The notes below the pieces were generated by a model that was not told the DNA's origin, did not search any database, and saw only the letters and a program-made list of their open reading frames with translations. The position numbers and the translations under genes were made by a program. DNA of 64,000 nt from Eledone cirrhosa (lineage: Eukaryota). Position 1 is the stretch's first letter. Every line of letters starts with the position of its first letter. Shown in pieces: positions 20,240 through 63,023 of this stretch. Location: contig OZ024747.1 in assembly GCA_964016885.1 (NCBI GenBank), positions 92,380,001 through 92,444,000 of the forward strand, written 5' to 3'.

Positions 20240-20551
20240 CGTTATGGTAAAAATAAATGCACCCAGTACTCAGTACAGTAAATGAGGTTGGTGTTAGGAA
20301 GAACTTCCAGCTGTAAAAATCAAGCCAAAATCAATTCTGTATGAGCAAGACATGGTCACTTGACCTGGCATTGCCCACAATAGGACAACTCATATAACCC
20401 ATGCTAGCGTGGAAGAATGGACATAAAACGGGGATGAAATTGATGATATATATATATATATATAATTAAAGAATTATATATACATATATATTGTATATAA
20501 TTAAAGAATTATATATATATATATAGAAGTGGTTACACAACAGTTAGTTCA

Positions 20552-20601
20552 CCATACCGAGAACAATTGTTTCACCTTAGCGGATCCTCAGCTCGTAATG
20601 G
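20552..20601 (-). ncRNA. Minimal type I hammerhead with palindromic loop 3
   Basis: CCAUUACGAG-CUGAGGA-UCC-GCUAA-GGU-GAAAC-AAUU-GUU-CUCGGUAUGG; in an ~85-bp TA-embedded element; homologous to 62868-63009. Confidence 0.8.
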
Positions 20602-20676: not shown

Positions 20677-21853
20677 CTAGCAGATTTACCCGGCGTTGCT
20701 CGGGGTTTGAAATTATGCTAAGAATATACAGCTAGGAAGTAAAAGAAGAACATTATTTGTCCCCAACCTGTCAAAATAAGCAGAAGTCTTCAATAATTAA
20801 TGCAAACGAATATTTAGTGCAATCTTTGTATGCATAAAACTATGTTGATAATGAAGGAAAACACTGAACAGGATGTTGTTATACAAATGATTAAAGACAA
20901 TACACGTTGCAAATCTGTAAAAAAAACAGGCAGTTTTGCTAAAGTACAAAAACTTGTAATGAAATCAGAGTTGTATACAAACAAAAAAATAATGAGAGTA
21001 GAATAAGAGAAAATCTATTCTTTGAGAGCATCCTTTGCTGTGTATGGTTAAATTTTGAACTTATAATCCAAAATATCCTGCATGACATATTCATTGGTAT
21101 GTTTTGTAATGAGTAAGGTGAAGTCAAGGCAAAACTGTAATAAGGTTTTTTGTTAACACTAAAGCATAGACGATATTCTTTGTTTTTCTTTTCGGAACAA
21201 ACGCAAAGAGATTATCTCGACTGCCAACTCGTGAGCAGGCAACGTAGAATTGTCCGTGCGAAAAGCAAGGTTTATCCAAGTGAATTCCAGCGACGGACAG
21301 AGTTTGACCTTGCGACTTATTTATGGACATCACAAAGGCAACACGAAGGGGAAATTGGGTTCGGCGAAAGTAGAAGGGAGTATCCACGCCTGATGTAGTC
21401 AGGCTAATTTTTGTTATTATCACATCCTCGCCTTTTCCACATCCGGATAGAATGGTAGCGTCAATACTAAGTGGAGACAGTTTTTTAACCACAAGGCGTG
21501 TACCATTGCATAGTTTTGGAGGAGTGATATTTCTCAGCAAAATAACTGGTGTTCCCTCTTTCAGGAGGTAAACCAATTTCTGAAAAGTTGGTTATCTCCC
21601 TTTTTTATAAGGATTGTCAATAAAGTTTGTTATCTCCCTTACATTAATTTTTCTACCGATAATTTTGATATCGATTTTTTATTGCTCAACATGGGTCGAT
21701 ATGAAAAATGTTTGTGATGTGACAATCTTAGCGACCTGTGCAACGTGCACAGAAAATTTGGTCAAATTCAGTTGGTAATTGTGAAAGCCTTATGCATGTA
21801 AAGTTGTACACAGACACACACACATCCTCGCTTTTATATTAATTATATAAAGA
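20677..21853 (-). mobile_element. Non-autonomous Helitron carrying the helicase C-terminus
   Basis: 5' TC at 21853; 3' CCCGAGCAACGCCGGG hairpin plus CTAG at 20677. Confidence 0.85.
21124..21576 (-). pseudogene. Helitron RepHel PIF1-like helicase C-terminal fragment
   Basis: LLRNITPPKLCNGTRL, RTQFPLRVAFVMSINKSQGQTL, FSHGQFYVACSRV. Confidence 0.9.
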
Positions 21854-22354: not shown

Positions 22355-24671
22355 ACTCACTCACTCACTCACTCACTCACTCACTCACTCACTCACTCAC
22401 TCTCTTTCTCTCTCTCTCTCCTATCCCTCTCTCTCTCTCTTTCTCTTTCTCACCTCCCTCTCTCTCTTTCTCTCCTCCCTCTCTCTCTCTCTCTTCTTTC
22501 TCTCTCCTCTCATTTCTCTCTGACCCTCTCTCTCTCCTATCTCTCTATCCTATCTCTCTCTCCCCTATCTCTCTATCCTGTCTCTCTCTCTCCCCTATGT
22601 CTCTCTCCCCTCTCCCTCCCTCTCTCTCTCTCTCGTTCTGGAAGAAATTAAATATGTTCAAACATGGAGAGGGATCAACTCCATCAGGTTTAAATGGCCA
22701 AAACACGCCGTAAACCACGACGATAGTTCTACGACTCCAGCAGGAGTTCAGTATTCATTGATGGATGGAATTGTGTTTGTATTGCTAATGTACTTGTTGA
22801 TATAATTTTGTACATGTGTATTTCTGTTATGTGAGCCACCTACTTTGTCGAGCTAGGGTTTTCTTTGTTTTGCTGTGGACATCTAGGATTTGGATTTCTT
22901 TTACTTTTTATTCTTCTATTGCTCCTAGGATGTAATTTTTCTTGCGTTGCATAATACTTCTTTTATATTTAGTCATCGTCGCACGAGGAAATAGCATTCA
23001 CGATCTCCTACTTATAACACCCGTTTGAATTTCTTTCACAATTGCCCACATGCGAGGAAGTTTATGCTAAAGAAATGGAAGCCTCCGGCCCTACAGAGAT
23101 AGATTCCAGCTCCCATAAGAGCAGTATACAAACTGATTTGGTCGTTCTAACACTAAAAAATCACTAAACAACCCACATATCACATGCTGTCTTTAAAATA
23201 CCGTAATTGTCTTGTTACATTGGTGTATGTGTATGGTGATAGAGAGAATACAATCTAGGTTACCTATATACTGTATATGTACAAATATAAACGCATATAT
23301 GTGTATATATCTGTGTGTGTGTGTGTGTGTGTTGGGAGTCCCAAACACAGAAATGAACTGTAACAACAGTCAATCGCTATAAACAATAGCTTAGAAAATC
23401 GAGAGGGACGAGAAAAGTGCCCAGTGTGTGTGGGCATGTACATACATATACATAGCTTTGATTTAAAATATAATAATTTAAGGTCAACAATGAATATTTG
23501 TTTTCTCCCTGGTTTAGTTTTCTGTAACGAAAATCTCTTTATAAAATGGCTGAGAAAATCTTCCCAACAAGACTTGGTGTTTATTTCTTAGCAAAAATTA
23601 TGCATCTTATCTTATGCAGAGAATTGTGACAGATTTGAACTCATGATCCATCAGCTGGCAATGCAGTTTCTAATTTGTTGCATTCCATTTTTATACAACC
23701 TCTAAAACCTTTCAACATCTAGTTAAAGCCATAGGAATAGTAATTACGTGAAAAATTGTCAACATTGAACTACAAATACATGAATATTCATTGAATGATA
23801 TAGCCAGAAATTATAGCCGCTTCTCTTCTCTACATACGAATATATTCCTAAATAATGAATCACCCTAATCAATTGGACCGTTATACAAGTCTAACGAAAA
23901 TAAAACTAAAAATTAAAATAGAAGGAAATTCTATGATAGTAAAGATTGGAAATTAGTTTGCAAAGATCGAAGTTATTAATTCTGTACATTGATCATAAAT
24001 GTCTATCGTGTGGCTAATCTATGGATTAGATTGGTAAAAAGAAACATATAGATCACATCTAAAATGGCTAAAGATCCTGTTTGATGTTTCATGCTTCATA
24101 TATTAAACTGAATAACGTGAAATAATTTTATATTTGCGATTTCGTTTGTGAATTCCATTCATAACGGCTTCATCATTCAATGTTAGATCCGAGCCTTAAA
24201 CATGAAGGATAAAATCTCGGTCATTTCTCACTCTCTGCGATTTTTAGAATATTTAACAGATCGAATATATTCACTAAGCCAATTTCCATTACTCAGAAGA
24301 TCCATTCTAATAACAACTTATGCTGGCAGTTAAATACTTTATCGTCAATAAGCTGCTGCTGCTGTTGTTGTTGTTGTTGTTGTTGCTGCTACTGCTGCTG
24401 CTGCTGCTGCTTCTTCTTTACCTTCTTCTTTGCCTACCTCTTCTTCTTCTTCTTCGCCTTCTTTGCCTTCTTCTTCTTCTCTGCCTTCTTTGCCTTCTTC
24501 TTTTTCTTCTTTTTCTTCTTCGACTTCTTCTTTTCCTCCTCTTCTTTTTTCTTCTTCTTCTTCTTCTTCTTTTCCTTCTTTTTCTTCTATTCGACTTCTT
24601 CTTTTCCCTCTTCTTTTTCTTTTTCTTTTTCTTCTTTTTCTTCTTCTACGCCGACTTATTCCTGAGAGGGT

Positions 24672-24985
24672 CATGGCTTAGTGGTTAGAGAGTTGGATTC
24701 ACAATCGTGAGGTTGTCACTTTGATTACCGAACCACATGATGCATTGTGTCCTTGAGCAAGACACTTTATTTTCACGTTGTTCCATTTCACTCAGCTGTA
24801 AAAATGAATTGCGATGTCAGTGGTACCAAGCTCTATCAGCCTTTTCTTCCCCTTGGAGGACGGTGGTGGCGTGGTAGGGGAGACTAATATCCAGGGGTGA
24901 CTATTGGTCTTCCACAAAAACACCTTGCACGGACTTGTGCCTTGAAGGGGAACTTTTTAGGCGCAAAACCCATGGTCATTCGTGA
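24672..24985 (+). mobile_element. tRNA-derived SINE, family B variant
   Basis: CATGGCTTAGTGGTTAGAG head and CCTTGAGCAAGACACTTTATTT core; related copy at 37165-37460 (-). Confidence 0.75.
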
Positions 24986-25082: not shown

Positions 25083-25125
<43 letters not shown>

Positions 25126-25245
25126 GATAGACATAGAATATTCGAAAATATTCTGTATGTTTATAATAAACATTTTGAAGACCTAATCGCTATAGAATAG
25201 AATACGTCACGTATTACAATTAGATTCTCGATAAAAGCAAGGGAA

Positions 25246-25288
25246 GTAACCTACGCGTTTCATTCTTATTAGAAATCTTCAGGATTAC
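25246..25288 (-). ncRNA. Minimal type I hammerhead ribozyme (unit 1)
   Basis: GUAAUC-CUGAAGA-UUUCU-AAUA-AGAAU-GAAA-CGCG-UA-GGUUAC; palindromic loop CGCG; GUA triplet. Confidence 0.9.
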
Positions 25289-25555
25289 ATATCCAGTGCT
25301 TTTATCGAGAATGACACAGCTAGAGACTTATAGAATACTTAGCTGTGTACAGGAACTGGTTTGAAAGAGCGGTTGCCGGTCCGGCAGAAATTGGAAATTG
25401 GAATAAATGCTCTGAAATAGCGATATATATGTGAAGATAGACATAGAATATTCGAAAATATTCTGTATGTTTATAATAAACATTTTGAAGACCTAATCGC
25501 TATAGAATAGAATACGTCACGTATTACAATTAGATTCTCGATAAAAGCAAGGGAA

Positions 25556-25598
25556 GTAACCTACGCGTTTCATTCTTATTAGAAATCTTCAGGATTAC
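25556..25598 (-). ncRNA. Minimal type I hammerhead ribozyme (unit 2)
   Basis: Identical to 25246-25288, 310 bp away. Confidence 0.9.
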
Positions 25599-25875
25599 AT
25601 ATCCAGTGCTTTTATCGAGAATGACACAGCTAGAGACTTATAGAATACTTAGCTGTGTACAGGAACTGGTTTGAAAGAGCGGTTGCCGGTCCGGCAGAAA
25701 TTGGAAATTGGAATAAATGCTCTGAAATAGCGATATATATGTGAAGATAGACATAGAATATTCGAAAATATTCTGTATGTTTATAATAAACATTTTGAAG
25801 ACCTAATCGCTATAGAATAGAATACGTCACGTATTACAATTAGATTCTCGATAAAAGCATATATATATATATATA

Positions 25876-26025
25876 TATTAGTACAGATTAAAGTTTAAGC
25901 AAAGAATCTCTGCTTTCACCCTATACAAATTCTTAGCTTAAAATTCAATCCGTACTAATAATAAATATTTGCTCTACGAGTTTATATATTCTTATCGAGC
26001 ACTCTTCGGATTTTGGTCTTTGTAT
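25876..26025 (+). mobile_element. Aged fold-back element with GCTC/GAGC tail hairpin
   Basis: Imperfect ~32-bp inverted arms spanning 25876-25960; tail GCTC..TC-GAGC-ACT at 25971-26003; another copy starts at about 63969. Confidence 0.6.
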
Positions 26026-26336: not shown

Positions 26337-26788
26337 GCGTGTGTGTGTGTACACAAATCCTTTCTGCACAGTGAACGGAAATGAAATTTTATTGATACGC
26401 AATTGTTCAACTCTAGGTTGTAGTAGAAGTTACCCATTTAATGTAACATGCAGCAATGTCATCCATCTCCTATATTTGCCTACACGTATACCTAATGTTC
26501 TTATAAATTACATATTTTCTTTAATAAAAACATATTAACATTTCAAATAATTAACTATAAAGTAATCTTTTTTATTTTCAGAATTGAAATGTGTTTAAAA
26601 TCTGTGTGGTAAAGATCCAGCTTCATTTGTCACTATATACCAGTTATGTCTAGATGTTGAGAAGTTAGACATTTTCCTGTTAATATACTAAGTCAATGTC
26701 TACAGAATCCAGGGTTACATTAACTAGACCTCATAATATGCTATAAATAAACCTCGTGATATGCTATCAACGAAACAAGCATCTCGAA

Positions 26789-35965: not shown

Positions 35966-36808
35966 CTGCAACAGAAAAAATAATTTTAAAAAGATTAGAA
36001 TATTAAGTAAACTATTTTTCAAGAGGGATTTAGATCTGCCGATATATTTATTCAGAAAGACTCTTCAGTAGAGCCATGAGCATGACAACCTGTCTGGTGT
36101 TGGTGACATGATAAAACATACCCAGTGTACTCTATAAAGGGACTGGTGATAGGAAGCGTCTCCAGCTATAGGAAACTTGCCAACATTTGTACATTAGTCT
36201 ATGTACTATACATGCACGTTTGATGAGTTGTAGTGCATCTAAGCATGGTACACAATAATTTTATTGTTGTGGAACCAACCAACCAACCGGAAATTTATAA
36301 ATTCCTAAATTTATAAATTTATTATAATAAATTAAAGTGAAAGCAACTGGTGTGTGTGTGTTTCTTATTGGCAACATGACCCTCCCAAAGTATAACAATT
36401 TTATTATCATTATCATTATCAAAGGGTCAGGAGGACTCTTCAGTTGTGTTGAAAACATGACAACTCCCTAGTGTTGATGCCATGATAAAATGGCACTCAT
36501 TGCACAGTGTAGCGTATGGGAACAAATGTAAGCGAGATAGGCATCAAAATACAAAAGGATGAATGAAGACGAGAAAGTGAAAGTAAAAAAAACAAAACAA
36601 TATCATATAAGTTGGCATTCGAAAGGACAAACTTAGCACTTGGAAGTATCCAGTCATAAACCCATGCCAGAATGGAATGTATGGGCAAGACATAGTCATC
36701 TAACCTGTCTAATTTCAGACCATGCCAACACAGAAAATGGATGTAAAATGATGATCTTTTTACTGAACATAACCAACAAAAGAAATACCTATCTAATAAT
36801 TCACTTAC

Positions 36809-37048
36809 CCTTGATGAACGTTGTTTGTTGTCTGGACAATATTGAGCACTACCTCCTGTCATCTTTAGAATATAAGAACCAGGTCTCATCCTCTCCCATA
36901 TAGGTTTCTCTCCCAAGGATAGAACTAGCTGTGGAAATTTTTGTTGAGTACATTTCTTGAAAGGACATATGTTGTAATCATAAGGAGGAATTTCAATTTG
37001 AAAGCAATTCAGACTTAGTTTGTAAAACACGCCTTCAGGACCATAACT
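36809..37048 (-). CDS. PRKCSH-like gene, coding exon 5 (MRH domain)
   Basis: tag|SYGPEGVFYKLSLNCF..YNICPFKKCTQ..CPDNKQRSSR|gtaagt; 240 nt. Confidence 0.9.
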
Positions 37049-38478
37049 CTAAGAAAACAAAAAAAATGTAATTAAATCAGTTTACTGGAAAATGTGAATG
37101 TTTTAAATGGGAGGAAATAAAATTACACAATGTCATATTTTATTCTAAAAAGAAAAAAGAACTCCTTTGGTCATGAAGGACGATGGGTTTGCACCTAGAA
37201 AGTCCTTCGGAGGCACAGTGTTTTTGTAGAAGACCAACAGTCACCCATGCATACCAGTCTCCCCTCTCCATGCCACAGATGTTGTCCAAGGGAAAGGCAA
37301 AGACCGATATAGTTTGGCATCAGTGACATCGCATCTCATTTCTACAGTTGAGTGAACTGGAGCAATGTGAAATAAAGTGTCTTGTTCAAAATCACAATGC
37401 ATCACTCAATCTAGGAATCAAACTCACAACCTCTCTCACCATTAAGCCATGTGTCTTCACATACTTAATACTACAGAAAATCTTATTACCAAACTTTAAT
37501 AAATCAAAACATGTTTCCTAATATCTAACATAAATACTACTCCAAATATTGTTTAAAATGTAGAACAATAGAAATAATATTTTTTATAATGACTTAATCA
37601 GAGGTAGAAGGGCAGCGTGCATGATCCTCTCTAGGACTTCCATGACATATGGAAATAAAACATCTTCAAAGTGGAGATCTGGCCCCAAATGACTGCAGGC
37701 AAAATATAGAAGGAAATTCATGCAAAGTAAGAAGAAAAAAAACTGGACTGAGAAAGAAAGGTTATTTATAAATTGACAATAATGGCAGACTTATAGTCAC
37801 TCAACAGACAACCAAAATTCTTGATAAATAACCTTCTTAACCCTTTAATGACCATATTTCTAATGAAATACACTCTATTTTAATTAATTAAGGAAGAATT
37901 TCAAGAGATTTACTAAAATTATTAATTATTCATTACTAAGATAGTAACTTAATGTAAGGTTCTTATATCAAATTATGTTGGAAGATATTAATTTAAATCG
38001 GAAACCTTTAAAATGGATGACTTTGTTTTGTAGAACCAGAGCTGGTTTTGGCCGGATTGGTAACTAAAGGATTAAATTTGTTCCCATTATTTTACTTTTA
38101 TTATTATCTGTTTATTCATTTATAAGGGCAGTGGATTAGTAGTATTGGTAGAGCATTGGACACCATGCTTCACGGCATAGAGTTATGTCTCATTACATTC
38201 TGAGTTCAAATCCCACTGAGGTTAGCTGTGCCTTTCATCTTTACGGGGTTGATACAATAAAGTACCAGTAATACACTGTCTGCTCCACAACAACCAAAGA
38301 GCCATATATGCTCTGATATGTTTGCATAATATATAAGCCTCTAAAATAAAAATACAATATCCCATCCACTTTGATTGAGATAGAGAAATATAAAGAGAAT
38401 CATATTATACTTTCAAATTTCTACCAGAAATATTGAAGTATTAATACTGACTTCCAATATAACAAAGTCTTTACTCAC

Positions 38479-38633
38479 CATTTTGTTTTTCACAGTAACT
38501 GCTGCTTTCACATAAGAGGCTTTGTGTCTACGACCCTCTATTATTAGCATTTTCTTCCTTCGGACCTTCTGAAGTATTGTTTTACACCAATTGGCACAAG
38601 GAGCATGCATCACGGAACCTCCTAAAGCAGGAT
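38479..38633 (-). CDS. PRKCSH-like gene, coding exon 4
   Basis: cag|(D)PALGG..PCANWCK..KNKM|gtgagt; 155 nt, phases consistent with neighbours. Confidence 0.85.
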
Positions 38634-38679
38634 CTGTAAGAACAGGCATAAAAACATATACTATATATATATCTTATAT

Positions 38680-38890
38680 AATGATTTCTACTATAGGCAC
38701 AAGGCCAACAATTTAAGGGGAGGTAAAAGTCAATTAAATCAACCCCAGTGCATTACTGGTGCTTTATTCTATCGACCCCGTAAGAATGAAAGGCAAAGCT
38801 AACACTGGTGGGATATGAACTCAGAAAGTAAAGGACCGTAACTCTATGCCGTGAAGCATTGTGTCCAACCCTCTACCGATACTGCCAATT
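38680..38890 (-). mobile_element. SINE family A
   Basis: Diverged copy; other copies at 14584-14730, 38126-38278, 39198-39391, 44699-44958, 49340-49535, 56150-56358, 59774-59921 and 60397-60574. Confidence 0.8.
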
Positions 38891-40514
38891 GTTTGTGTCT
38901 GTCCGTGTGTCAGTCTACTTAAGAGATGAATGAGTTGAAAAGAAGGAAGGGGTGGTGAATAAACTACAACAAAAACAATAAAGAGAGTTCCAAACTTGCT
39001 ATGCTCTGTGTGAATGCATATGTGTTTGTCTCAAAGTATGTGTATGTGTGTGTGTATATTTGTGTGGGTGTAAGTTTATGTGTGAGTATGTGTGTGTATT
39101 TTTGGGGGAGTTTGCACGTTTATATTTGCATACTCATATGTATAAATGGATGCATATGCACATACACACACACACATATACACATACATACATATATAAT
39201 AATTGTTTCTATTTTTGGCACAAGGACAGCAATTATCCCAGTACATTACTGGTACTTTATTTTATCGACCCCCGTAAGGAAGAAAGACAAAGTTAACCTC
39301 GGCAGGATTTGAACTAAGAAAGTAAAGGGGCGTAACTCTATGCTGCAAAACATGGCGTCCGACCCACTCCTGATACTGCCAATTCACTGCCTTCATACAT
39401 ATATAATAATAACTATTTAAAGGAAAAACAAATTTATCAAGCAATTATCATCTGTCGTCTGTCAGTCTACTAATTCAGCTCAAAAACTGCGTAGCGTTCA
39501 TATGTCTATGGAATACTCAGCCATATATATGTTAATTTCAGTCATTTCATTTGTCGATCAATTCAAAGATCTTTATTGAGAAAGACGAGACTTCCCAAAG
39601 ATGAGGTATAAGATTTGGCTACTCTTTCTAACACTGGGCAACCTCAAAGAGAATGCAAGTCATAGATATATATCAATATATATACACACACACACGCAAA
39701 CATACTTACACACACTCACAAATACACGCACAAACACACACACACACATTTGTAACGATCGTCTGCCAAGGCAACACAAATATTTTACTGGAGTTTCACA
39801 AAGTTTAGGTTTTCATTATCAATGTTTTATTATAAAGTTGTGAATGTAATTATGGCAAATACATTGATGTTTCATTGTCGTGTTCTATTAATTTATTTAC
39901 TTTGTTTGAGATATTTTTACCTAGTTGAGCGCCCAAGTAGGGACTTTGTGTCGTTTTGTATGTTTACAGATTTACTTCCCCTCGTCTGTAAAATTGATCT
40001 GATTTTGCACACCCGCAATTTTATTCCAGTGACCAGAGCAACAGTGCCATCAATAGTAGTGAATGTATTTAATTTTTAGAGACTAGGTTTGATATGTAGA
40101 ATTTACTAGGATTACTGGATACAGGAAGAACCATCTCGAAATTTAGAAATTCATATTTTCATAAATTAGTTACATAAGAGAAACCCTATAGTTTATGTTG
40201 ATTACTGACACAGAAATTATTAAAGGTGAAAATGATATTCTAATAATGTATTTCTAGAATATAATTACATAAATGTTCAGCATATATGGACAGATGACAT
40301 ACATGTCATGTATGTCATGTATGAATAACTTAGGAGAAATAACTTTTTACAGGGACAAATGTAGGATTAGAACCGAGGACCCTGTGATTGGAAAGTAAAA
40401 TACATGTATTTGTGTGTATAAATATACATTATAGTGTAATGAATGTATGGGTGTATATATATATATATATAAACACATATTATCTCAAGGAAGCCTGCTC
40501 AGTGCACTCTACAT

Positions 40515-40878
40515 GTGAATGGAGTTCCATTGAAGCAGGTGGAGAAGTTCAAGTATCTCGGGGCTGTGTTCACAAGTGATGGAAGGCAGGAGGAAGAATT
40601 AAATGCAAGAATTGCAGGAGCTGGTGCAGTAATGTGCCAGCTTCAGCATTCAATAATCAGAAGAAAGGAGGTAGGTGTAAAATCCAAACTCGCTATCTTC
40701 AATTCAGTATTAGTGCCAACCCTTACCTATAGTCATGAATCTAGAGTAATGACGGAAAGAATATGATCGTGAGTACAAGAGGCCGAAATGGGGTTCCTCC
40801 GAAGGGTCTTTGGAGTAATGTTACTCGATAGAGTGCATAGCTCAGAGATTAGAGAGTCACTCCATGGAGAGCCGCTAG
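40515..40878 (+). pseudogene. RTE-like LINE RT C-terminal fragment
   Basis: LKQVEKFKYLG, LVPTLTYSHES, EMGFLRRVFGV. Confidence 0.8.
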
Positions 40879-40945
40879 TATTTATATATATAATTCAAAT
40901 TAAAAATATATGTATATATCCATATATCATTAGAGAAACACACAG

Positions 40946-41270
40946 TCATCATCATTTCATTTTACGTCCACTTTTCCCTGCTTGCAAGGGTGGGACGGGA
41001 ACTGATTCTGGCTTGATTTCTACAGCTGGATGCCCTTCCTCATTTACAGTGAGTGCTGGCTGCTTTTTTGCCGTGGCACCTCCACGACCACTTTACAGTG
41101 GAGTGATAGGGACTGGTCCCTATCATCTCATTTCTACAGCTGAGTAAACTGGAGCAATGTGAAATAAAGTGCCTTGCTCAAGGAAACAACACATCACCCG
41201 GTCTGAGAATTGAACTCACAACCTTTCGATTGCAAGGCCAATGCTCTTACCACTAAGCCATGTGCCTCCA
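40946..41270 (-). mobile_element. SINE family B
   Basis: GGAGGCACATGGCTTAGTGG head and (ATG)n tail. Confidence 0.85.
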
Positions 41271-42125
41271 TAATACACACAGTATTTTGTACATATATAT
41301 AAAAAGCACATACTATTTAAGAAACAGAAAGAGGTGAGAGAATTCTGGCCTGATATGGCCGGTTTAAATGCTAAAGTGTTAAGGTACCATAATGAGACTT
41401 ATGTATGTTTATTATATATAAACATATTGTATATGTTTTCATATAAGCCTCTATTATGTTTATTATAATCTAGCTTTGTTTTCCATTGAAGATGGAACAA
41501 ACCTGTTGTACATCCATATAACAAAACCAAGAAGGAAACTCAGCCAGTGAGCAGCTGAAAACACTCTTTGTATTTCAAAGAGTCAATTTAGTGTTCAATA
41601 GAGTCCCATTCCAATAATACATTTAATACAGGATTTAATACATGCAAGCATGAAAATTAATTACATAAAATATAATTGAGAATCATCATCATCATCGTTT
41701 AACATCCATCTTCCACGCTAGCATGGGTTAGACGGTTTTGTTCCATTTGATGTGGGATTGGTCAGGAGACCGTGTCTCGCTCATACGGAAGTGTCTCTGG
41801 CAGGTTTGTTTTCTACGGCTGGATGTCCTTTCTAACACCAACCACTTTACAGTGTGGACTGGGTGCTTTTTGTTGTGTCACCGACACGGTGGATGGAAAT
41901 GGGAGGATGGGGTAGGGTGTGTGGGGTGGGGTGTATATTGGGTTAAGAGGTGCCTATTGACTGTAGATTTGTATGCAAGGGAAGGCGGGTCTTCTGTACA
42001 ACTACATAGCGTCAAAGATCTCGATCCAGTGACATTGTCTTAGAGAGGTGTAAGTGAGCAAGGTCACCTTGTCTCAGGTTTTTCTTGGTCTGCAATAGAG
42101 ATACAATAACAAATTTCACTATTAC

Positions 42126-42265
42126 CTTTAATTCGAATTTTATCAGGCAAAACTTCAGTTGACCATTCATCACTACCATCACAGCAATCACATATACCAT
42201 CTTGTACATGACTTGACCATGTAAACTGAGGTTTCAATCCTTCCAGCTGAAAAGTGCAATAAAAC
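42126..42265 (-). CDS. PRKCSH-like gene, coding exon 3 (second LDLa-like repeat)
   Basis: cag|FYC..SSHVQDGICDCCDGSDEW..|gtaata; 140 nt. Confidence 0.92.
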
Positions 42266-42518
42266 CTGTAGAAGAAAGTAAAACAATCTAAAGCAGGAAA
42301 TTCTTCATTAAGTTTTATATAAAAATAATCATCAACATCATTGTGATCTTTCTCGATCTGAGATGTTCTCCTACCTACTTCAATTGTTTGTCTTTTGTCT
42401 TCTAACTCTATTAGCTCTCAGGTGACTATGGAGAGCTAGATTTGATTGGAAAATTTGGTGGCATTCTCAGTTCAGAATAAGAGATGATCTTTGAAAGTTA
42501 TTTGTTAATATCCTTTAA

Positions 42519-42937
42519 CCCTTTAGCATTTACATTATTCTATATTTATTATTATATTTTCACAGTGAAGGCTTTACCTCACATAATATCAAAACTATGA
42601 GATTTTGATGTTATTTATTTTGAGAACAATACCTTAACATCAGTATGAGTGACAGGTTATGACTGGTTTGAACAGAAAGAGGTGAGAGAATTCCGGCCAG
42701 ATACAGCCGGTTTAAATGCTAAAGGGTTAAACCAGCTGTATCTGGCCAGAATTCTTTCATCTCTTTCTGTTCAAACTGATCATAACCAGCCGGTCATATT
42801 GATGTTGAGGTATTGTTCTCCAAATAAATAATATCAAAATCTTGTAGATTCGATAATATGTGAGATAATTATGTAAGATAAAGCCTTTACTGTGAAAATA
42901 CAATAGTTAAATATAGAGTAATGTAAATGTTAAAGGG
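42519..42937. mobile_element. Two adjacent, oppositely oriented piggyBac-like MITEs
   Basis: TIR CCCTTTAGCATTT with TTAA flanks; copies at 42519-42726 and 42731-42937. Confidence 0.8.
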
Positions 42938-43394
42938 TTAATCATGGCTAATCCAACATAGATGGTGTCTGATGGATCATTGCCTTAATGTTAGTCATTC
43001 CTGCTTGTTCTAAGACAGAGAGATATTGGTCTTCTTTTGCTCCCAATGAATACCAACAACAGAATGAACAAAGTTTTCATTCTTGAGACCATTCAAACTG
43101 TTTAAAGTGATCTTTGTCATCCATTAGGTGTAGGAAAAGGCCAAGAAGCACTAAAAGCTGCTACATTTGTTTTGTTTTCTGATCTGACCAAGGCCTTTGA
43201 CAGTCTATGCTGGGACCCACTATGGAAAATACTTGAGAAACTTGGCATCCCACCAAAATTTCTGGCAAGCTCTCACTCCCTTCATAACAATATGAAGTGT
43301 TTAATGCTTTCAAATGGATTAGCATCACCGTAGATTGAAGTCAAAAGTACAATTCAAATATTTTACAAGTAATGTTATAACAATACTATTATCA

Positions 43395-44189
43395 CCTTGA
43401 TCAGCTGGACCGACCAGTCTGTCGGCCGTCCATTCGGCACCGCTGGTCACAGCACGCCGTCCATTCTTCTCTGGATCGTGCTTTCCTCATCCATGTAGTC
43501 CCAATCGTATTCCTAAAATCGTAACTCCACCATCGTGGAGGCCTTCCGCGTGGTCATTTCTGCTCGCGCGGGTACCACTCGGCAACTGCACGGGTCCACC
43601 GATTATCGGTGAACCGGGCGATGTTTCCAGCCCATCTGAACTTGCTGTGCATATATTCCGTGATGACGTCCCTCACGCCGGACTTCTGTCTGATGACTTC
43701 GCTCCTGATGTGCTCTTTCAACGAGATTCCTAACATTGATCTCTCCATGGCTCTTTGAGCCATTACCAGCCTCTGCTCTTCTCTCTTCATTGTAGCCCAA
43801 GTTTCACTGCCATATAACATTGCAGGTAAAACTGTGCTATTGAAGAGGTTGGCGCGGGTGGTCTTGTCCAACCTCCCCTTGAACACATCCCTTATGCCGT
43901 TGAAGGCCTTCCATCCGGCCCTTACTCTCTGCAAGATCTCCCTCTCAATGTCTCGGAGCATGTTCACTTCTTGTCCTAGGTAGACGTATTCCTCCACCTC
44001 CTCTATTTCTTCACCGCCAACCACCATTCGACCTGTTGGTACATTGTCGGACCGCATGAACTTCGTTTTCATGCGGTTTATCTTGAGGCCTACTGCAGAG
44101 CTTTTGATGTCGAGCTCCGTCAGCATGGTCTGAAGCTGATCTGTGGTTTCAGCGATGAGTACGATGTCATCAGCGAAACGGAGGTGGGT
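43395..44189 (-). mobile_element. 5'-truncated RTE-clade LINE (relatively young, GC-rich)
   Basis: HLRFADDIVL..GLKINRMKTKFM..EYVYLGQ..LPAMLYGSETW..FRWAGNIAR; adjacent to an older RT relic (DLTKAFD, about 43180). Confidence 0.9.
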
Positions 44190-44585
44190 ACTATTATATA
44201 AGTTGATATGTATTTTTCAGCTAGTTCAATAAAAGACACTACCATAAGAAAAATATGCATATAACTTTGAATTTGTGATACTTTCTGTCAAAGTGTTTTT
44301 ATCAACTCTTTTGTTACTGTATTTCTAAAGAAATATACTACCTAAGATTTTTAAACCATTTTGAAAATAATTAAGATTTTGGAAGGACTTTGTAATATAA
44401 TGAACTTACTTATTATTATGCTTGTTTGCAGCATCACTTAACAAATGTTCATATATAAAATTATCATGGGAGGCTTTTAGATAAATATAAACACTTCAAA
44501 AATAACTTAGTATTGTAGAGGCAGGAGCAGTTTTATGTGGCTTGATGTCAAAAAAGTTAAAGACACAAATATTCGGAATGGTTAA

Positions 44586-45016
44586 CCCTTTAACATTTAA
44601 ACCGGCCACGTCTGGCCAGAATTTTCTCACCTCCTCCTGTTCAAACAGGCCATAACCAGCTGCTCATACTGACATTAAGGTATTGTTCTCAAAATAAATA
44701 ATTGTTTCTACTTTTTGGCACAAGGCCAGCAATTACCCAGTGCATTACTGGTACTTTATTTTATCAACCCCGTAAAGATGAAAGGTAAAGTTAACCTCGG
44801 CGGGATTTGAACTCAGAATGGCAAGGGCAGTAACTCTATGCGTCAAAGCATGGCGTCCGACCCTCTACCGATACTGCCAATCCACCGCCATAATTGTTTC
44901 TACTTTTGGCACAAGGCCAGCAATTACCCGGTGCATTACTGGTACTTTATTTTATCGATAAAGCCTTTACTGTGAAAATACAGTAGTAAATATAGAGTAA
45001 TGTAAATGGTAAAGGG
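44586..45016. mobile_element. piggyBac-like MITE interrupted by about 1.4 SINE-A copies
   Basis: TTAA-CCCTTT and AAAGGG-TTAA ends; SINE sequence at 44699-44958 inside. Confidence 0.8.
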
Positions 45017-45049
45017 TTAAATAGGTTAAATATAATTTAAATTACTTAC

Positions 45050-45141
45050 TTTGATAAATGACAAGCTGAAGTACCAGGTTCATCAGAGTTATCATTACAA
45101 TCACAGAAATCATCATTTAAATATTGGTATGGAATTTGTTG
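45050..45141 (-). CDS. PRKCSH-like gene, coding exon 2 (first LDLa-like repeat)
   Basis: cag|QQIPYQYLNDDFCDCNDNSDEPGTSAC..|gtaagt; 92 nt. Confidence 0.92.
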
Positions 45142-45215
45142 CTGAAATTAAAGTCCAAAATATTAATCTTTTTGTAATGGCAAATCATTCCAATAAACTT
45201 GAAGACTAGAACAAA

Positions 45216-45642
45216 TAGTATATCTTATATAGTTAAGAAATATAACATATCTTATATAGTATATCTTATATAGTTAAGAAATATAACATATCTTATATAG
45301 TATATCTTATATAGTTAAGAAATATAACATATCTTATATAGTATATCTTATATAGTTAAGAAATATAACATATCTTATATAGTATATCTTATATAGTTAA
45401 GAAATATAACATATCTTATATAGTATATCTTATATAGTTAAGAAATATAACATATCTTATATAGTATATCTTATATAGTTAAGAAATATAACATATCTTA
45501 TATAGTATATCTTATATAGTTAAGAAATATAACATATCTTATATAGTATATATTATATAGTTAAGAAATATAACATATCTTATATAGTATATCTTATATA
45601 GTTAAGAAATATAACATATCTTATTTAGTTAAGAAATATAAC
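45216..45642. repeat. 41-bp AT-rich minisatellite, about 10 units
   Basis: Unit TATAACATATCTTATATAGTATATCTTATATAGTTAAGAAA. Confidence 0.95.
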
Positions 45643-46475
45643 AATAAAGTGGTAAGAAACTGTCAGGAGAGCTGAACAGCAGAAGGTTTTCAGAGAAGAA
45701 ACCACCCCTCAAGTGAGTGTTTCAGCCCTTAACTTCTGAAACTTCAAGATTAGAACATATAGCACATCATATATAGTTAAGAAATATAACAATATATTAT
45801 AAAATAAATCTAAATACAAAGAAACCTATAAATCATCATCATCATCACGATTTGACGTCCATCTTTCCACACTAGCATGGGTAGGATGGGCTATCCCTTT
45901 GTGAGAGATCTGGTCGGAGGACTGCGCTCACTCAAACAGAACTGATTTTGGCTTGGTTTCTATGGCTGGATGCCCTTCTTAACGCCAACCACATTTAAAG
46001 GGTGGACTAGGTGCTTTTTGTCGTGACACCTACACGACCACTTTACAGTGTGGGCTGGGTGCTTTTTGTCGTGGGACTAATAATTAAATCTGTGGAAGAT
46101 TTAGAGAAGAAATTCCAAATGTGGAAACAAAACCTAGAATTGAAAAGGCTCCAGAGTAAACTTAATAAAGACTAAAATCTTATTAAGTAGGAAAGAAGAT
46201 ATGCCTAGGTCTGGGTAGTGTTTGGGCTATGCCCTACAGACTAATACTTGTTCAGCAACTTTTCTATTGAAACTACCAGTCATGGATGTCAAGTAGGTTT
46301 TATTAAGTTTTATACATACCACATCTGACTAGCTTTGAAAAGGTCAGATTGCCTCCAAATAATGTGTAAACATTGGATCTTATATTCACTAAAATACATA
46401 AAACCTAGTTCAAATAAGTTTTAGTTGAGAAAAGTTGTTGATCAGTAAAACAGAAAGAAAGAATTCATCATTTAA

Positions 46476-46696
46476 CCCTTTAGCATTTACATTATACTAT
46501 ATATAGTACTGTATTTTTGTGGTAAGGGGTTTATCTTACACAATTATCTCACATAATATCGAATCTGTAAAATTTTGATAGTATCTATTTTGAAAACAAT
46601 ATCTTAAAGTCAGTATAAGCAGCCAGTTAGAGCCAGTTTAAACAAAAAGAGGTGAGAGAATTCTGGTTGGATACAGCCAGTTTAAATGCTAAAGAG
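46476..46696. mobile_element. piggyBac-like MITE
   Basis: TTAA flanks and CCCTTTAGCATTT TIR; other copies at 47154-47343, 48290-48510, 49798-50018, 50344-50562, 51028-51235, 51713-51920 and 61331-61512. Confidence 0.8.
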
Positions 46697-47419
46697 TTAA
46701 AACCTGTTTTCCTGCTAGTAAAGGTTGAATGGGTTGTCATAGACCAAGTCAATACTTACTCAAAGCCACTAACCTCTCAGATAGGCTGAGGACAGGGGAT
46801 GAGGGGGGTCTTGCTTACATACATTCCATACTCTACATGTGTATTTTATTATGGCACCAACACTGAAGTGGTTGCCATGTCTTTGACACAACTGTAGAAT
46901 TCTCTCAACATTTGGGCAAGTTTTCTACAGTTGGATGTATTTCCTATCACCAACCATTGTAAAGAGCTTACTGACTGAGTTTTATCATGCACCAACACAA
47001 GTGAGGTTGTCATGCCATTGATACAACTGATGACTTGCTCGACTTTGTTTTGCTATTATATAACAGAATTCAATAAAACAGGATGAAAGCATATGTTAGT
47101 TCCAGTTTATGTACAATACAAAGAAACACAGTTACACTTAATTACAAGTTTAACTCTTTAGCATTTGCATTACTCGATATATACTATTGTATTTTTGCAA
47201 TAAATATTATCTCACGTAATCTCACGTTATCTATAAGATTTTGATATTATTTATTTTGAAAACAATACTTTATCATTGCTGGTTTGAACAGAAAGAGGTG
47301 AGAGAATTCTGACTGGGTACAGCTAGTTTAAATAATGCTAAAACAGCCTTTTATTTCTTTTGTTATTTATGTAAGACACTGAGATGATGCACGATTGAGT
47401 TGACTGGCAATATACTATA

Positions 47420-47748
47420 TAACAACACAGAACAGAGTTGAATGGGGATATGCCACAATACAATGACACAGGACTGAACTGACTGGGGATATGCCACAAT
47501 ACAGTGACAAAAGACTGAACTGACTGGGGATATGGCACAATACAGTGACAGAGGACCAAACTGACGGGATATGCCACAATACAATGACACAGGACTGAAC
47601 TGACTGGGGATATGCCACAATACAATGACACAGGACTGAACTGACTGGGGATATGCCACAATACAATACGACACAGAACTGAACTGACTGGGGATATCCC
47701 ACAATACAATGACACAGGACCAAACTGACTGGGGATACGCCACAATAC
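47420..47748. repeat. ~40-bp minisatellite, about 8 units
   Basis: Unit GGGGATATGCCACAATACAATGACACAGGACTGAACTGACT. Confidence 0.9.
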
Positions 47749-48688
47749 AAAACCTGTCCATCAGTACCAGCACTGCAACACTAAAAGTAAACATGGTGAG
47801 AGACCAGAGGCTACAGTGTTTGGCAAACGAACAGAGAACTCTTCAGTCTGATAAAACCTATGACAACCTTTCTAGTACTGATGAAATGATAAAATGCACC
47901 TAGTACACCCTGTAAAGTGTTTGTGTTAGTGCCACAATGATATACACCCAATACACTCTGTAAGGTTTTTGGCATTAGGAATAGCATCTAACCATAGAAA
48001 ACATTCTAAATATTGAATGTATGAGCAAAATGAGGTTGTATCAACCTATCTGGTCTCAGATGCCAGCATGAAAAACACATATCATGATTTCATTCAGTGT
48101 GACCAAGAGGGTGAATAGGAAGGCAATAGATACATAAATATCAGGTTGAACTTTTGAAAGAAGCAAGGGTATGATGGAATAAATAGAGTGATTGAGGTGG
48201 GAGGTTTCGTTGTTTAGTTCCTTGTTAACCATTTTCAAACAGATCTCTGATTAAAGGTGTTCCCTTAGTCAATATAACATCTTATTTAACCCTTTAGCAT
48301 TTAAACCAGCCGTATGTGGCCAGAATTCTCTCACTTCTTTCTGTTCAAACCAGCTGTAACTAGTTGCTCATACTGATTTTAAGATATTGTTCTCAAAATA
48401 AATAATATCAAAATGTCATAGATTTGATATTATGTGAGATAATTATGTGAGGTACAGCCTTTACCATGAAAATATAGTAGTAAATATAGAGTAATGTGAG
48501 TGCTAAAGGGTTAAACATGTTGGCAGAGTAATGGATGGGAGACAGTGATAACAGGCTTATATCTGCTGATAAGAGAGAGTTGATGATGTATAGTAACGGA
48601 ACTGAACAATATACATACATGCATTAGAAAATGTGATGTACGTGAATGTGATGTGTTTTTTAATATTACAGAAGTTAAAGCAACTTAC

Positions 48689-49003
48689 CTTAGCATGTAG
48701 ACATTGAAACGTGTCGTTCTTTGTTGGAAGATAAAGGTGCATTTTATCGAGAAATACACCCCTTATTAAAGTTTTTGGGTTCTGTCTAGATTGCTGTATC
48801 CTTGCAACAACTAAGAAATCTGGCATTTCAGGCAATTGATCCTGTAATATTTCCTCTTTGACATGATGGTCTAATGAAAACGAGTCGCTATTTACTGCAT
48901 CTAGTTTGGTCATGGAATAGTAGAGGAACAGTATGTATAAACTAGCTGTCATCCCCAGCAGCAAGAGAAGAACCCGATATTTACTCCAAAATACTCTCTT
49001 CAT
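48689..49003 (-). CDS. PRKCSH/glucosidase II beta-like gene, coding exon 1 (signal-anchor, stem, start of Cys-rich region)
   Basis: MKRVFWSKYR-VLLLLLGMTASLYILFLYY..IRGV..HLY..FQCLHAK|gtaagt; in-frame stop upstream; acceptor before 49054; six exons splice to 1038 nt (345 aa). Confidence 0.88.
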
Positions 49004-52000
49004 AACTGTTTTTATTTAGTTATTTTTTCTGACTGCCTTCCCAACATAGTTCCACTGCAAGGAAGAATGACAGAAATATACACATGAAAACAAGATTACA
49101 CAAAAGAAAATACAGAGGCTCAAATACAGAAAGTTATTTTCAACATGCATGAGTGTCTGATGAGCATATAATTTGCTCATTCAGACTGTGAGAAATTGCA
49201 GCTAATATATCATATGCTGGGATGGTCCCTTAACCTCTGAGAGAGTTGTAAGGTTTCTGTATTTACATATGGCATTTCATTAAACGTGGCAGAGTCCATC
49301 TCCTCTCCAGGTCTAAATACAGCAGATTTCTTCTAGAAAAGGATAGAGAATGGAAGTGAGAAAGAGATATAGAGGAAGAATCAACACCAATACTAGACTG
49401 GTACATTTTTTATCAATCTTGAATAGAAGGAAGGCAAAGTTGACCTCAGCAGGATTTGAATTCAGAGAACAGAGAGCCAAAACAAATACCGCAAAGCATT
49501 CTATCCGACATTCTAACAACTCTGCTAATTTGCCACCTATATCATATACAAACTATTCACAAATACTCTCTATATAATAAGCTGCATGCAAACATGTGCA
49601 TAAAATTTAAGCAGAGTTGACAAAATAACTTTAACTCTTAATATCCTGTACTACATGAAATCATATTAAGAACACATTCTTGAAAAGTACAAAACAGCAC
49701 TATCATTGCATCACATTAAAAATTAAAGACTTTAATTTAGTTTGCTGTAAAATTTTACAATAATCTGTCCACTAGTAAATATATTATAAATTTTTAACCC
49801 TTTACCATTTTCGTTACTCTATATTGACTATTGTATTTTCACGGTAAAGTTTTTACCTCACTTAATTATCTCACATAATATCAAATCTATGAGATTTTGA
49901 TGTTATTCATTTTGAGAACAATACCTTAACATCAGTATGAGTAGCCAGTTACAACCGGTTTGGACAGAAAGAGGTGAGAGAATTCTGGCTGGATACAGCT
50001 AGTTTAAATGCTAAAGGGTTAAATTAGAGCCATTTTAAAAAAGTTTCTGCTAAATCATTACAGGATGTTAAGAGTTAATAATTGAAATAGCATTAGAGAA
50101 TGTTTCCAACATCATGATTGCACATTAATGTTATAAATATCTAAAAGAAAAGTAGTTGACTGCCAGAACTAAGGAAACACTATTTCCATTGGTCTTACCA
50201 TTACTGATACTTTCTGCTAGAAGTTGGCAGGATATGAACTCATAATTCACAGAACTAGATGGAATACCACAAAGCTTCTGGAATGGTATTTTAGTTATCA
50301 AGCCCATCCACCTCAAATATAGTATGCACCATTTGAGGTTTAACCCTTTAGCATTCACATTACTCTATATATACTATTGTATTTTCACAGTAAAGGCTTT
50401 ATCTCAAATAATTATGTCACATAATATCAAATCTATGAGATTTTTATATTATTTATTTTGAGAACAATACCATAACATCAGTATGAGTGGCCAGTTACAG
50501 CCAGTTTAAACAGAAAGATGAAATAATTCTGGCCGGATTTGGCCAGTTTAAATGCTAAAGGGTTAAACGTTTGGAGAAATGTATAAGGAAAAAGAAAAGC
50601 CATCATGTTTGAATATAACATTAACATTCCATTACTGAAAGATACTGCTTATGATTTTCAAACATGTTTTAGAATAATAAAAAATTTAGAGGAATTTAAT
50701 ACAATGAAATTATTGTGTATAGTAATATGACTGGCTCATTATGTTGGTGTTAAGAACATAACTTAAGAGAAGGCTCTTACAATAAATTATAATTGAAGGG
50801 TTAAATTTAAACATGAATACTTTAAAACAAATAGACTTTCATCATAGATCTTGGTGTGGGGTTTTTTTATGTGACTTAGTATCAAAAAGGTTTAAAAGGG
50901 CTTGATTCATCTTCAAATTAACTTGATAAATATGAAATCATAATATTCTACAAATAAGAAGCCTTTCTCATATGATTTTAAGAAAGAATATAAGAAACAA
51001 AGCACAGGTTTTTTTTTTTTCTTTTAACCCTTTAGCATTTAAACCGGCTGTATCTGGCCAGAATTCTCTCACCTCTTTCTGTTCAAACTGGCTGTAACCA
51101 GCTGCTCATACTTATGTTAAGGTATCGTTCTCAAAATAAATAATATCAAAATCTCATAGATTTGATATTATGTCAGGTAAAACCTTTACTATGAAAATAT
51201 AATAGTATATATAGAGTAATGTAAATGCTAAAGGGTTAACAAGATACAGAGGAACTTAAATCAAAAACAATTCTACTGTTAAATTTATCATACCATAATC
51301 TATAAATGTGAAGTGTGTGTGTGTGTGTTGATATTCTCTCTCTTTCACTTACTACCTCCGTCTCTCTCACTCTCCCCATCTCTCACTATTATAAGCAAAT
51401 AGGAGCCCACATGCTAGACACCGGAAATACAGAATAATACTAATAAATTATGCTAAAATTCACATTAGTATACTTTTACTTTTCATACAATAGCCTTATC
51501 TTCTTCACTTGTAAAATGTTTTAATTTCAAATAACAGAAGCATGGGATATGTTGTTGTTGTATAGCCTCAGGTCAACGGACATATATTTAAAGTAATTCC
51601 ATTCATGTCTCTCTCAAGATCTGCCCTTCTTTACCCCTTCTCCCTTTTCTCATTACTTAATTTTGTTTTTATCTTTCTTTTTCATACCTATGTAATCATC
51701 AATGGTGTTTAACCCTTTAGTATTTAAACCGCCCATATCCGGCTAGAATTCTCTCACCTCTTTCTGTTCAAACAGGCTGTAACCAACTGCTCATACTTAT
51801 GTTAAGGTATTGTTCTCAAAATAAATAATATCAAACTCTTGTAGATTCGATATTATGTGAGATAAAGTGTTTAGCATGAAAATACAATAGTATATATAGA
51901 GTAATGTGAATGATAAAGAGTTAAGCCAACTTTGTGTATATATGCAATATTTAATGAACACTTCTTACAAAATGAAAATATAGACATATAATATATACAA

Positions 52001-62489: not shown

Positions 62490-62810
62490 ATCATCATCAT
62501 CATCATTTCATTTTACGTCCGCTTTTTCCCTGCTTGCAAGGGTGGGACAGGAACTGATTCTGGCTTGATTTCTATAGCTGGATGCCCTTCCTAACACCAA
62601 CCTCATTTACAGTGAGTGCTGGGTGCTTTTTTGCTGTGGCAGCTCAACGACCCCAGTCCCTATCATTTCATTTCTACAGCTGAGTAAACTGGAGCAATGT
62701 GAAATAAAGTGTCTTGCTCAAGGAAATAACACATCACCCAGTCTGAGAATTGAACTCACAACCTTTCGATTGCAAGGCCAATGCTCTAACCACTGAGCCA
62801 TGTGCCTTCA
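62490..62810 (-). mobile_element. SINE family B
   Basis: Near-identical to 40946-41270. Confidence 0.85.
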
Positions 62811-62821
62811 TTGTGTATATA

Positions 62822-63009
62822 TAATAGTAAAACACTGGAGAGCACTCAGTCCATGGGACGAGTTTGGTAGAAGTAGTTCCACAACAGTTAGTTCACCATA
62901 CCAAGAACAAATGTTTCACCTTATGTGGATTCAGATCAAGCTGAGGATCCGCATAAGGTGAAACATTTGTTCTCGGTATGGTGAACTAACTGTTGTAGAA
63001 CTACTTCTA
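62822..63009 (-). mobile_element. Fold-back element with hammerhead plus tail hairpin
   Basis: Inverted arms spanning 62868-63009; CUGAGGA-UCC..GGU-GAAAC-AUUU-GUU at 62941-62971 (+); tail ACTC-GTCC-CAT-GGAC-T-GAGTGCT at 62841-62863 (-). Confidence 0.8.
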
Positions 63010-63023
63010 TATGTATATATATG

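Follow-up and report, generated by a model that had tools for sequence, protein, structure and literature searches.

A young hammerhead retrozyme array in Eledone cirrhosa and the Penelope-type footprint of its family

The window analysed here, a 64-kb stretch of Eledone cirrhosa DNA, holds a tandem array of 738 bp with a period of 310 (Table 1). Comparison of unit with unit gave 0 mismatches, as a first-pass annotation of this DNA had read for its 2.4 identical 310-bp units. TA microhomology lengthens the repeat match to position 25113, with 1 mismatch. Since the flanks themselves consist of TA, a target-site duplication is unreadable at this array. Monomer positions are counted from the base that follows the predicted hammerhead cut (m1); read in the ribozyme sense, the window array runs from m13 (25859) to m130 (25122). 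The 310-bp monomer is non-coding, with a longest open frame of 59 codons on the circle and a GC content of 34.5%.

Table 1. Positions in the window of the array, its borders and its predicted RNA features
Feature	Position	Strand	Remarks
Single-arm insertion	25122..25859	-	2.38 identical units of 310 bp
(TA)n target, 3' (priming) junction	25086..25122	.	read from sequence
(TA)n at truncated 5' junction	25860..25879	.	read from sequence
Type I hammerhead motif 1	25556..25598	-	C3 at 25592; predicted cut 25562/25561 after GUA
Type I hammerhead motif 2	25246..25288	-	C3 at 25282; predicted cut 25252/25251 after GUA
Predicted 310-nt monomer between the two cuts	25252..25561	-	motif prediction
Tail between start sites 1 and 2	25397..25431, again 25707-25741	-	full unit; the window insertion ends at site 1
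Private variant m169	25393, again at 25703	-	in both covering units; fixed in 0 other loci of 100 examined
16-bp helix lengthening stem I	25224-25239 with 25297-25312	-	array-wide variants keep pairing

Each complete unit in the window contains a hammerhead motif, and the 64 kb has no other full motif of this description. All parts of the type I design (the core CUGANGA, GAAA and NUH, with stems I-III) are present: a stem I of 6 bp, a CUGAAGA core, a stem II of 4 bp, GAAA, GUA at the predicted cut, and a stem III of 2 bp with the palindromic CGCG. The same motif was found in 0 of 20,000 letter-shuffled monomers. The first-pass annotation had called it a textbook minimal hammerhead. The minus-strand type I motif and its CGCG stand, but 'textbook' is an overstatement because pair 10.1-11.1, which closes stem II, is U-U and not G-C. 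Moreover, the window motifs matched no Rfam hammerhead family at the gathering threshold, the sole match being Hammerhead_HH9 (17.1 bits, E 0.63, far under the gathering score of 52). Pair 10.1-11.1 is A-U in 10 of 100 family loci, and U-U likewise occurs in the hammerheads of two families of Penelope-like elements (PLEs) in the same genome. The motif is kept from unit to unit, with cut site and first stem I base intact in 611 of the 612 junction words from fetched loci. Ligation scars at the cut junction were sought in these loci and none were found; one locus carries a 1-nt insertion two bases downstream of the junction in 7/7 units. A pattern search for other elements sharing loop 3 returned only copies of the same retrozyme family. 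A candidate antisense ribozyme relic inside the monomer was rejected, as it scored no better than shuffles.

Downstream of the array, a plus-strand open frame of 650 codons begins after ~720 bp, with the ribozyme antisense to it. An acceptor-like pyrimidine-AG at ~26570-26582 lies ahead of this frame, for which a Pfam search gave no match. Over 36497-49015 (-) lie exons of a gene resembling PRKCSH (glucosidase II beta subunit), with a score under the Pfam cut-off. We also observed fragments of a Pif1 helicase (21124-21591, -) and of a reverse transcriptase (43554-44216, -), together with a short repeat whose tRNA-like heads lie at 62739-62802 (-) and ~24668-24730 (+) and which is probably a SINE. 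Hammerheads of other kinds occur in the window as well. At 70-410, two whose stem III is complete (cores at 78 and 328) sit in short pieces resembling the terminal repeat of a Hydra-like PLE; an inverted piece separates the two, and TA/TG tracts surround them. A further hammerhead element, its stem II U-U closed, is present in two copies, at 20540-20600 (-) and 62840-63010 (+), the latter with an inverted piece in front.

The array belongs to a dispersed family. Its 310 period recurs at >1,000 loci, so the array in the window is not an assembly artefact, and the earlier reading of a recent, dispersed insertion into (TA)n holds. Copy number had been named as a check by the first-pass annotation: exact ribozyme words in the 3.0-Gb host genome number 943 for the window type and 11,470 for a sister word (controls 0). 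Exact 3' junction words with TA number 1,154 at one end site (site 1) and 1,024 at another (site 2) genome-wide; both totals are lower bounds, which gives at least 1,154 insertion ends. We analysed 100 loci, comprising the window, 39 arrays (from the best-scored 40 of 217 candidates), 20 loci from contig 1 pattern listings and 40 of 73 unpaired ends. Together they hold 643 units, in which singleton changes amount to 0.07% per base. These values mark the retrozyme family as young and large. There is also an older sister family (L110-L139; 2,810 candidates), which has a unit of ~313 nt and the same layout with other ribozyme stems II/III, suggesting a swap of ribozyme modules. Two apparent relatives were dismissed: a match beside a Neptune ORF (L071) is not the terminal repeat of that element but a separate insertion of the older sister family, and an apparent 310/308 mosaic (L238) is two adjacent insertions. 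A literature search by title and abstract openings found no paper on this Eledone retrozyme family.

The 3' ends of family insertions fall into two modes, 129-131 and 163-168 nt past the cut, joined to (TA)n. They define two fixed start sites, site 1 at m130-139 and site 2 at m160-168, ~35 nt apart. In most insertions two arms stand head to head, one with its end at site 1 and the other at site 2. Among the first 181 ends listed on contig 1, all 54 divergent pairs lying ≤20 kb apart combine site 1 with site 2. The same pairing was seen at 44/44 fetched loci, a set that partly overlaps the 54 and omits three loci at which one end was unclear or lay out of view. We fetched 40 further ends that had appeared unpaired. 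An inverted arm was present in 30, ending at the other site in 29/29 readable cases; the remaining 10 are single arms in microsatellite, as in the window. If independent RNAs picked their sites freely, same-site pairs would make up about half, and none were seen. The window array is one of the single-arm minority of family insertions, its second arm either never made or lost.

These ends bear on the earlier proposal that TA microhomology primed the insertion. The 3' end does join (TA)n; however, it lies at one of two fixed, family-wide sites ~35 nt apart. This spacing is the tail signature of PLEs, and it speaks for the action of a Penelope-like enzyme more than for TA microhomology by itself. 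The 5' ends behave differently from the 3' ends. They are scattered round the monomer circle, with 1 of 145 at m1-5, and arm lengths vary, some arms exceeding 20 units. An excess of 5' ends at m12-30 (16/105), an interval picked after the data were seen, was not repeated in further ends (3/40, p 0.45). We therefore regard the 5' end of the window array at m13 as an ordinary truncation. A tie of 5' ends to the cut site is rejected, and with it any significance of an end 12 nt after the cut. A 5' flank other than TA was found in 7 of the first 40 loci. At four loci (L044, L050, L051, L060), a retrozyme arm stands head to head with a 3' piece of another PLE/hammerhead element ending in (TA)n; 40 further loci yielded 0 such mixed pairs. 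They could reflect co-insertion from two RNAs or later deletion, and carry little weight since later deletions could produce them.

The two arms of an insertion share their sequence variants. The ribozyme haplotype is identical between arms at 33 of 34 loci (shuffled mean 7.1, maximum 16), and in 72 of 75 two-arm loci the arms agree at every polymorphic position; the 100 loci hold 33 haplotypes. We found 25 variants that fill every unit of their own locus, in up to 18 units across both arms. Twelve of these are confined to a single locus, including m169 in the window. A 2-nt deletion is present throughout both arms of one insertion. A variant of one unit can fill a new array only via a one-unit bottleneck, such as a monomer circle would supply. 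The array-wide variants and the two-arm deletion lend indirect support to the circular or multimeric template put forward in the first-pass annotation. Concordant arms would also be expected if subfamilies were active at different times.

Seventeen variants fill only part of their array. At L262, both arms carry a variant in the unit next upstream of their start that is absent further in, a pattern more in keeping with a multimeric template than with a monomer circle. In the longest array, an arm of ~46 units (L291-L292, G000:C1:97461000-97476900), a variant block recurs 27 units later, and at L035, L047 and L288 variants are mirrored near the inversion centre. The recurring block and the mirrored variants indicate that unequal exchange and conversion act after insertion, and show that some long arrays undergo satellite-like reshuffling at the DNA level. 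Together with the 17 partial variants and the register at L262, the 27-unit block also implies that some templates may be multimers. A 340-nt contig that closes the 310 cycle, assembled from three other runs, was considered as an RNA circle and not counted, as these runs behave like trace DNA. In a control stretch they hold essentially only high-copy repeats, and the monomer depth of run X6 relative to a common repeat is similar to that of the genomic-looking run X1.

The monomer is strongly folded. The 16-bp helix and the two hairpins reported by the first-pass annotation were all located where it had placed them. The circular monomer folds with z = -4.7 against 100 dinucleotide shuffles, and the opposite strand likewise (z = -5.0). 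Within five named helices, which replaced minimum-energy fold classes in this comparison, array-wide variants keep pairing in 7/7 cases versus 7/34 for singletons (p 1.5e-4). The catalytic core contains 0 array-wide variants. This combination of pairing-keeping variants and an unchanged core suggests selection on the RNA fold.

Long frames combining reverse transcriptase and GIY-YIG are present in the genome (10,596 GIY-YIG candidates, 150 of them scored). Its abundant PLEs share the two-end layout, their repeats carrying hammerhead variants and two TA-joined ends. No autonomous element with the 3' region of the monomer turned up in the 58 PLE-bearing loci examined of the thousands present. 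Two groups, whose clade names we assigned by eye from domain order and from motifs given in parts of Craig et al. 2021 (PMC8557442), were weighed as candidate helpers. Neptune-type elements fit the geometry, with ~115-125 and 146-164 nt from cut to ends and a palindromic loop 3; the copies sampled are 95-98% alike. Three of their repeats (L090, L102, L103) have hammerhead-like cores in which U3-A8 replaces C3-G8; in one of them, GAAA is also changed to GCAA. The Hydra-like family (L210-L227, G000, e.g. C12:33092000-33101900) has a 758-codon frame, a canonical hammerhead and 3' ends ~69 nt apart, giving a tail longer than the ~35 nt of the retrozyme. It is very young (98-100% alike in the best 40 of 1,632 candidates), and a Pfam search of its protein gave no match. 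Its ribozyme stem II is similar to that of the retrozyme, and it adjoins one retrozyme arm head to head (L060). The monomer shares with it a 28-nt ribozyme match (25/28 bases, 89%), and alignment over the whole repeat stays at shuffle level. For a PLE protein as such, sections of Frangieh et al. 2024 (PMC11167929) report that the purified enzyme, a predicted dimer, cut and extended both target strands in vitro and began at two internal sites that delimit the tail.

The reading that we favour, and hold to be likely, is that the array is a young insertion of a non-coding hammerhead retrozyme family, itself likely a non-autonomous PLE, and that it was probably copied from a 310-nt RNA circle. An existing array would be transcribed in the ribozyme sense. 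Neighbouring hammerheads are predicted, from their motif and from published dimer cleavage, to pair through the palindromic stem III and release 310-nt monomers, and a host RNA ligase, as we infer from passages of Cervera and de la Pena 2020 (PMC7229834), would circularize them. A PLE protein would then nick both (TA)n strands, and two reverse transcriptases would start on one RNA at the two sites ~35 nt apart; the sites and the rule of one arm per site are seen in the genome, and the enzyme is presumed. Each reverse transcriptase would pass the cut site for several units and stop at an arbitrary point, in keeping with the arm lengths and 5' ends observed in the genome. Finally, the two 5' ends would be joined head to head; in the window, the site-1 arm would stand alone with its 5' end joined to TA. 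Whether each insertion is the work of a PLE reverse-transcriptase dimer on one ribozyme-made 310-nt circle, with rolling-circle copying at both sites from opposite (TA)n strands, appears to us evenly balanced.

The same element and the same PLE enzyme might instead have used an uncut linear (or large circular) multimer of a uniform source array, with a ribozyme that is weak or serves as a protein-binding structure only. The partial variant lying in register in both arms at L262 would fit such a template, as would the other partial variants and the U-U closing pair. In vitro, the ribozyme was dispensable for PLE insertion and unprocessed RNA was the dominant substrate, according to sections of Frangieh et al. 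2024. However, the 25 array-wide variants and the 33 haplotypes in 100 loci would still require a one-unit bottleneck; arms of more than 20 units and the lack of array-wide change in the catalytic core also speak against it, and we judge an uncut multimer unlikely, if still worth serious attention.

A larger role for DNA-level processes is conceivable too. A PLE would insert short monomers or dimers, and arrays would then grow and homogenize as DNA satellites by unequal crossing-over and by conversion between arms; a local-amplification route is raised in the discussion of a preprint (10.64898/2026.07.22.740005). Such a history would produce the 27-unit block repeat and the variants mirrored near inversion centres, yet arrays nearly free of mutation already have two inverted arms that are long and uniform, and DNA-level spread, where seen, leaves variants partial. 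We consider this quite improbable. It is hardly credible that the array is a duplication made locally in assembly, or a plain satellite that carries a hammerhead by chance. The identity of the two window units and the lack of any spanning contig from another run would agree with this, but the family-wide period, the absence of the motif from shuffled monomers, the structure-keeping variation and the fixed ends all contradict it.

If the reading of an enzyme dimer on a monomer circle is true, it would explain the tandem, inverted anatomy of PLEs with its one-sided tail, which has long been unexplained; the origin of these tandem and inverted structures is named as an open task in a passage of Craig et al. 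2021. It would also provide direct genomic evidence for the circle as the transposition intermediate of retrozymes. In the portions of the retrozyme literature covered here, the conversion of circular RNA into a tandem array in the genome is a proposal, not a demonstrated step. The youth and high copy number of the Eledone family allow this step to be read from its ends and haplotypes: a single RNA with two starts and an arm from each. Furthermore, a 310-nt substrate with mapped start sites is directly testable in the published in vitro PLE assay.

The family belongs to a known class; what sets it apart is that its copies, taken together, bear a Penelope-type footprint of unusual clarity. LTR retrozymes, which carry a type III hammerhead in their LTRs and have a GC content >55%, are ruled out by the type I motif, the tandem units and the low GC of the Eledone family. 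The hammerhead variants of PLEs share with it the dimer-type design and the palindromic loop 3, as described in parts of Cervera and de la Pena 2014 (PMC4209133); there, G10.1-C11.1 is highly conserved, a pair absent from the Eledone motif, and in vitro cleavage by PLE minimal hammerheads was weak.

Endonuclease-bearing PLEs, in the sections of Craig et al. 2021, PMC3846280 and Frangieh et al. 2024 consulted, likewise form 5'-truncated tandem copies with an inverted 5' copy. They also have a tail of 30-40 bp, often at one end only, (TA)n targets and a hammerhead upstream of two reverse-transcription starts. The Eledone family has the same layout: its two 3' ends are separated by 30-40 nt, the 5' copy is inverted and the target is a microsatellite. 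In contrast to the PLEs in these accounts, it has no ORF, both of its arms are many units long and share private variants, and the tail is strictly on one arm (54/54). The head-to-head arrangement is attributed to self-priming on an antisense template in the relevant passage of Arkhipova et al. 2013 (PMC3846280), whereas the Eledone ends fit priming from both target strands.

The closest likeness in unit design is to the metazoan non-LTR retrozymes of Cervera and de la Pena 2020 and of the preprint mentioned above (Li, Clavereau and Pollet 2026), which in the sections available are likewise tandem non-coding units of ~300 bp with GC <45% and co-occurring PLEs, each unit with a single type I hammerhead whose helix III is short and palindromic. 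The Eledone units fall within ~150-450 bp, are low in GC and non-coding, and form a dispersed mobile family; with a hammerhead in each tandem unit, they bear out the first-pass assignment to a retrozyme-type element. Non-LTR retrozymes have G-C at 10.1-11.1, the Eledone family U-U. Except for that pair, the array has all sequence-level retrozyme features tested, with cleavage and circle as predictions; in the preprint, 8/9 frog retrozyme dimers were uncleaved. The main text by Cervera and de la Pena 2020 has 0 occurrences of the words 'inverted', 'microsatellite' and 'target site', and in the available sections of the preprint we found no description of the arrangement seen in the Eledone family, in which two arms stand head to head and their fixed ends lie in (TA)n. 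The same preprint proposes that retrozymes are non-autonomous PLEs, and the Eledone family, as far as its genomic copies tell, fits this proposal.
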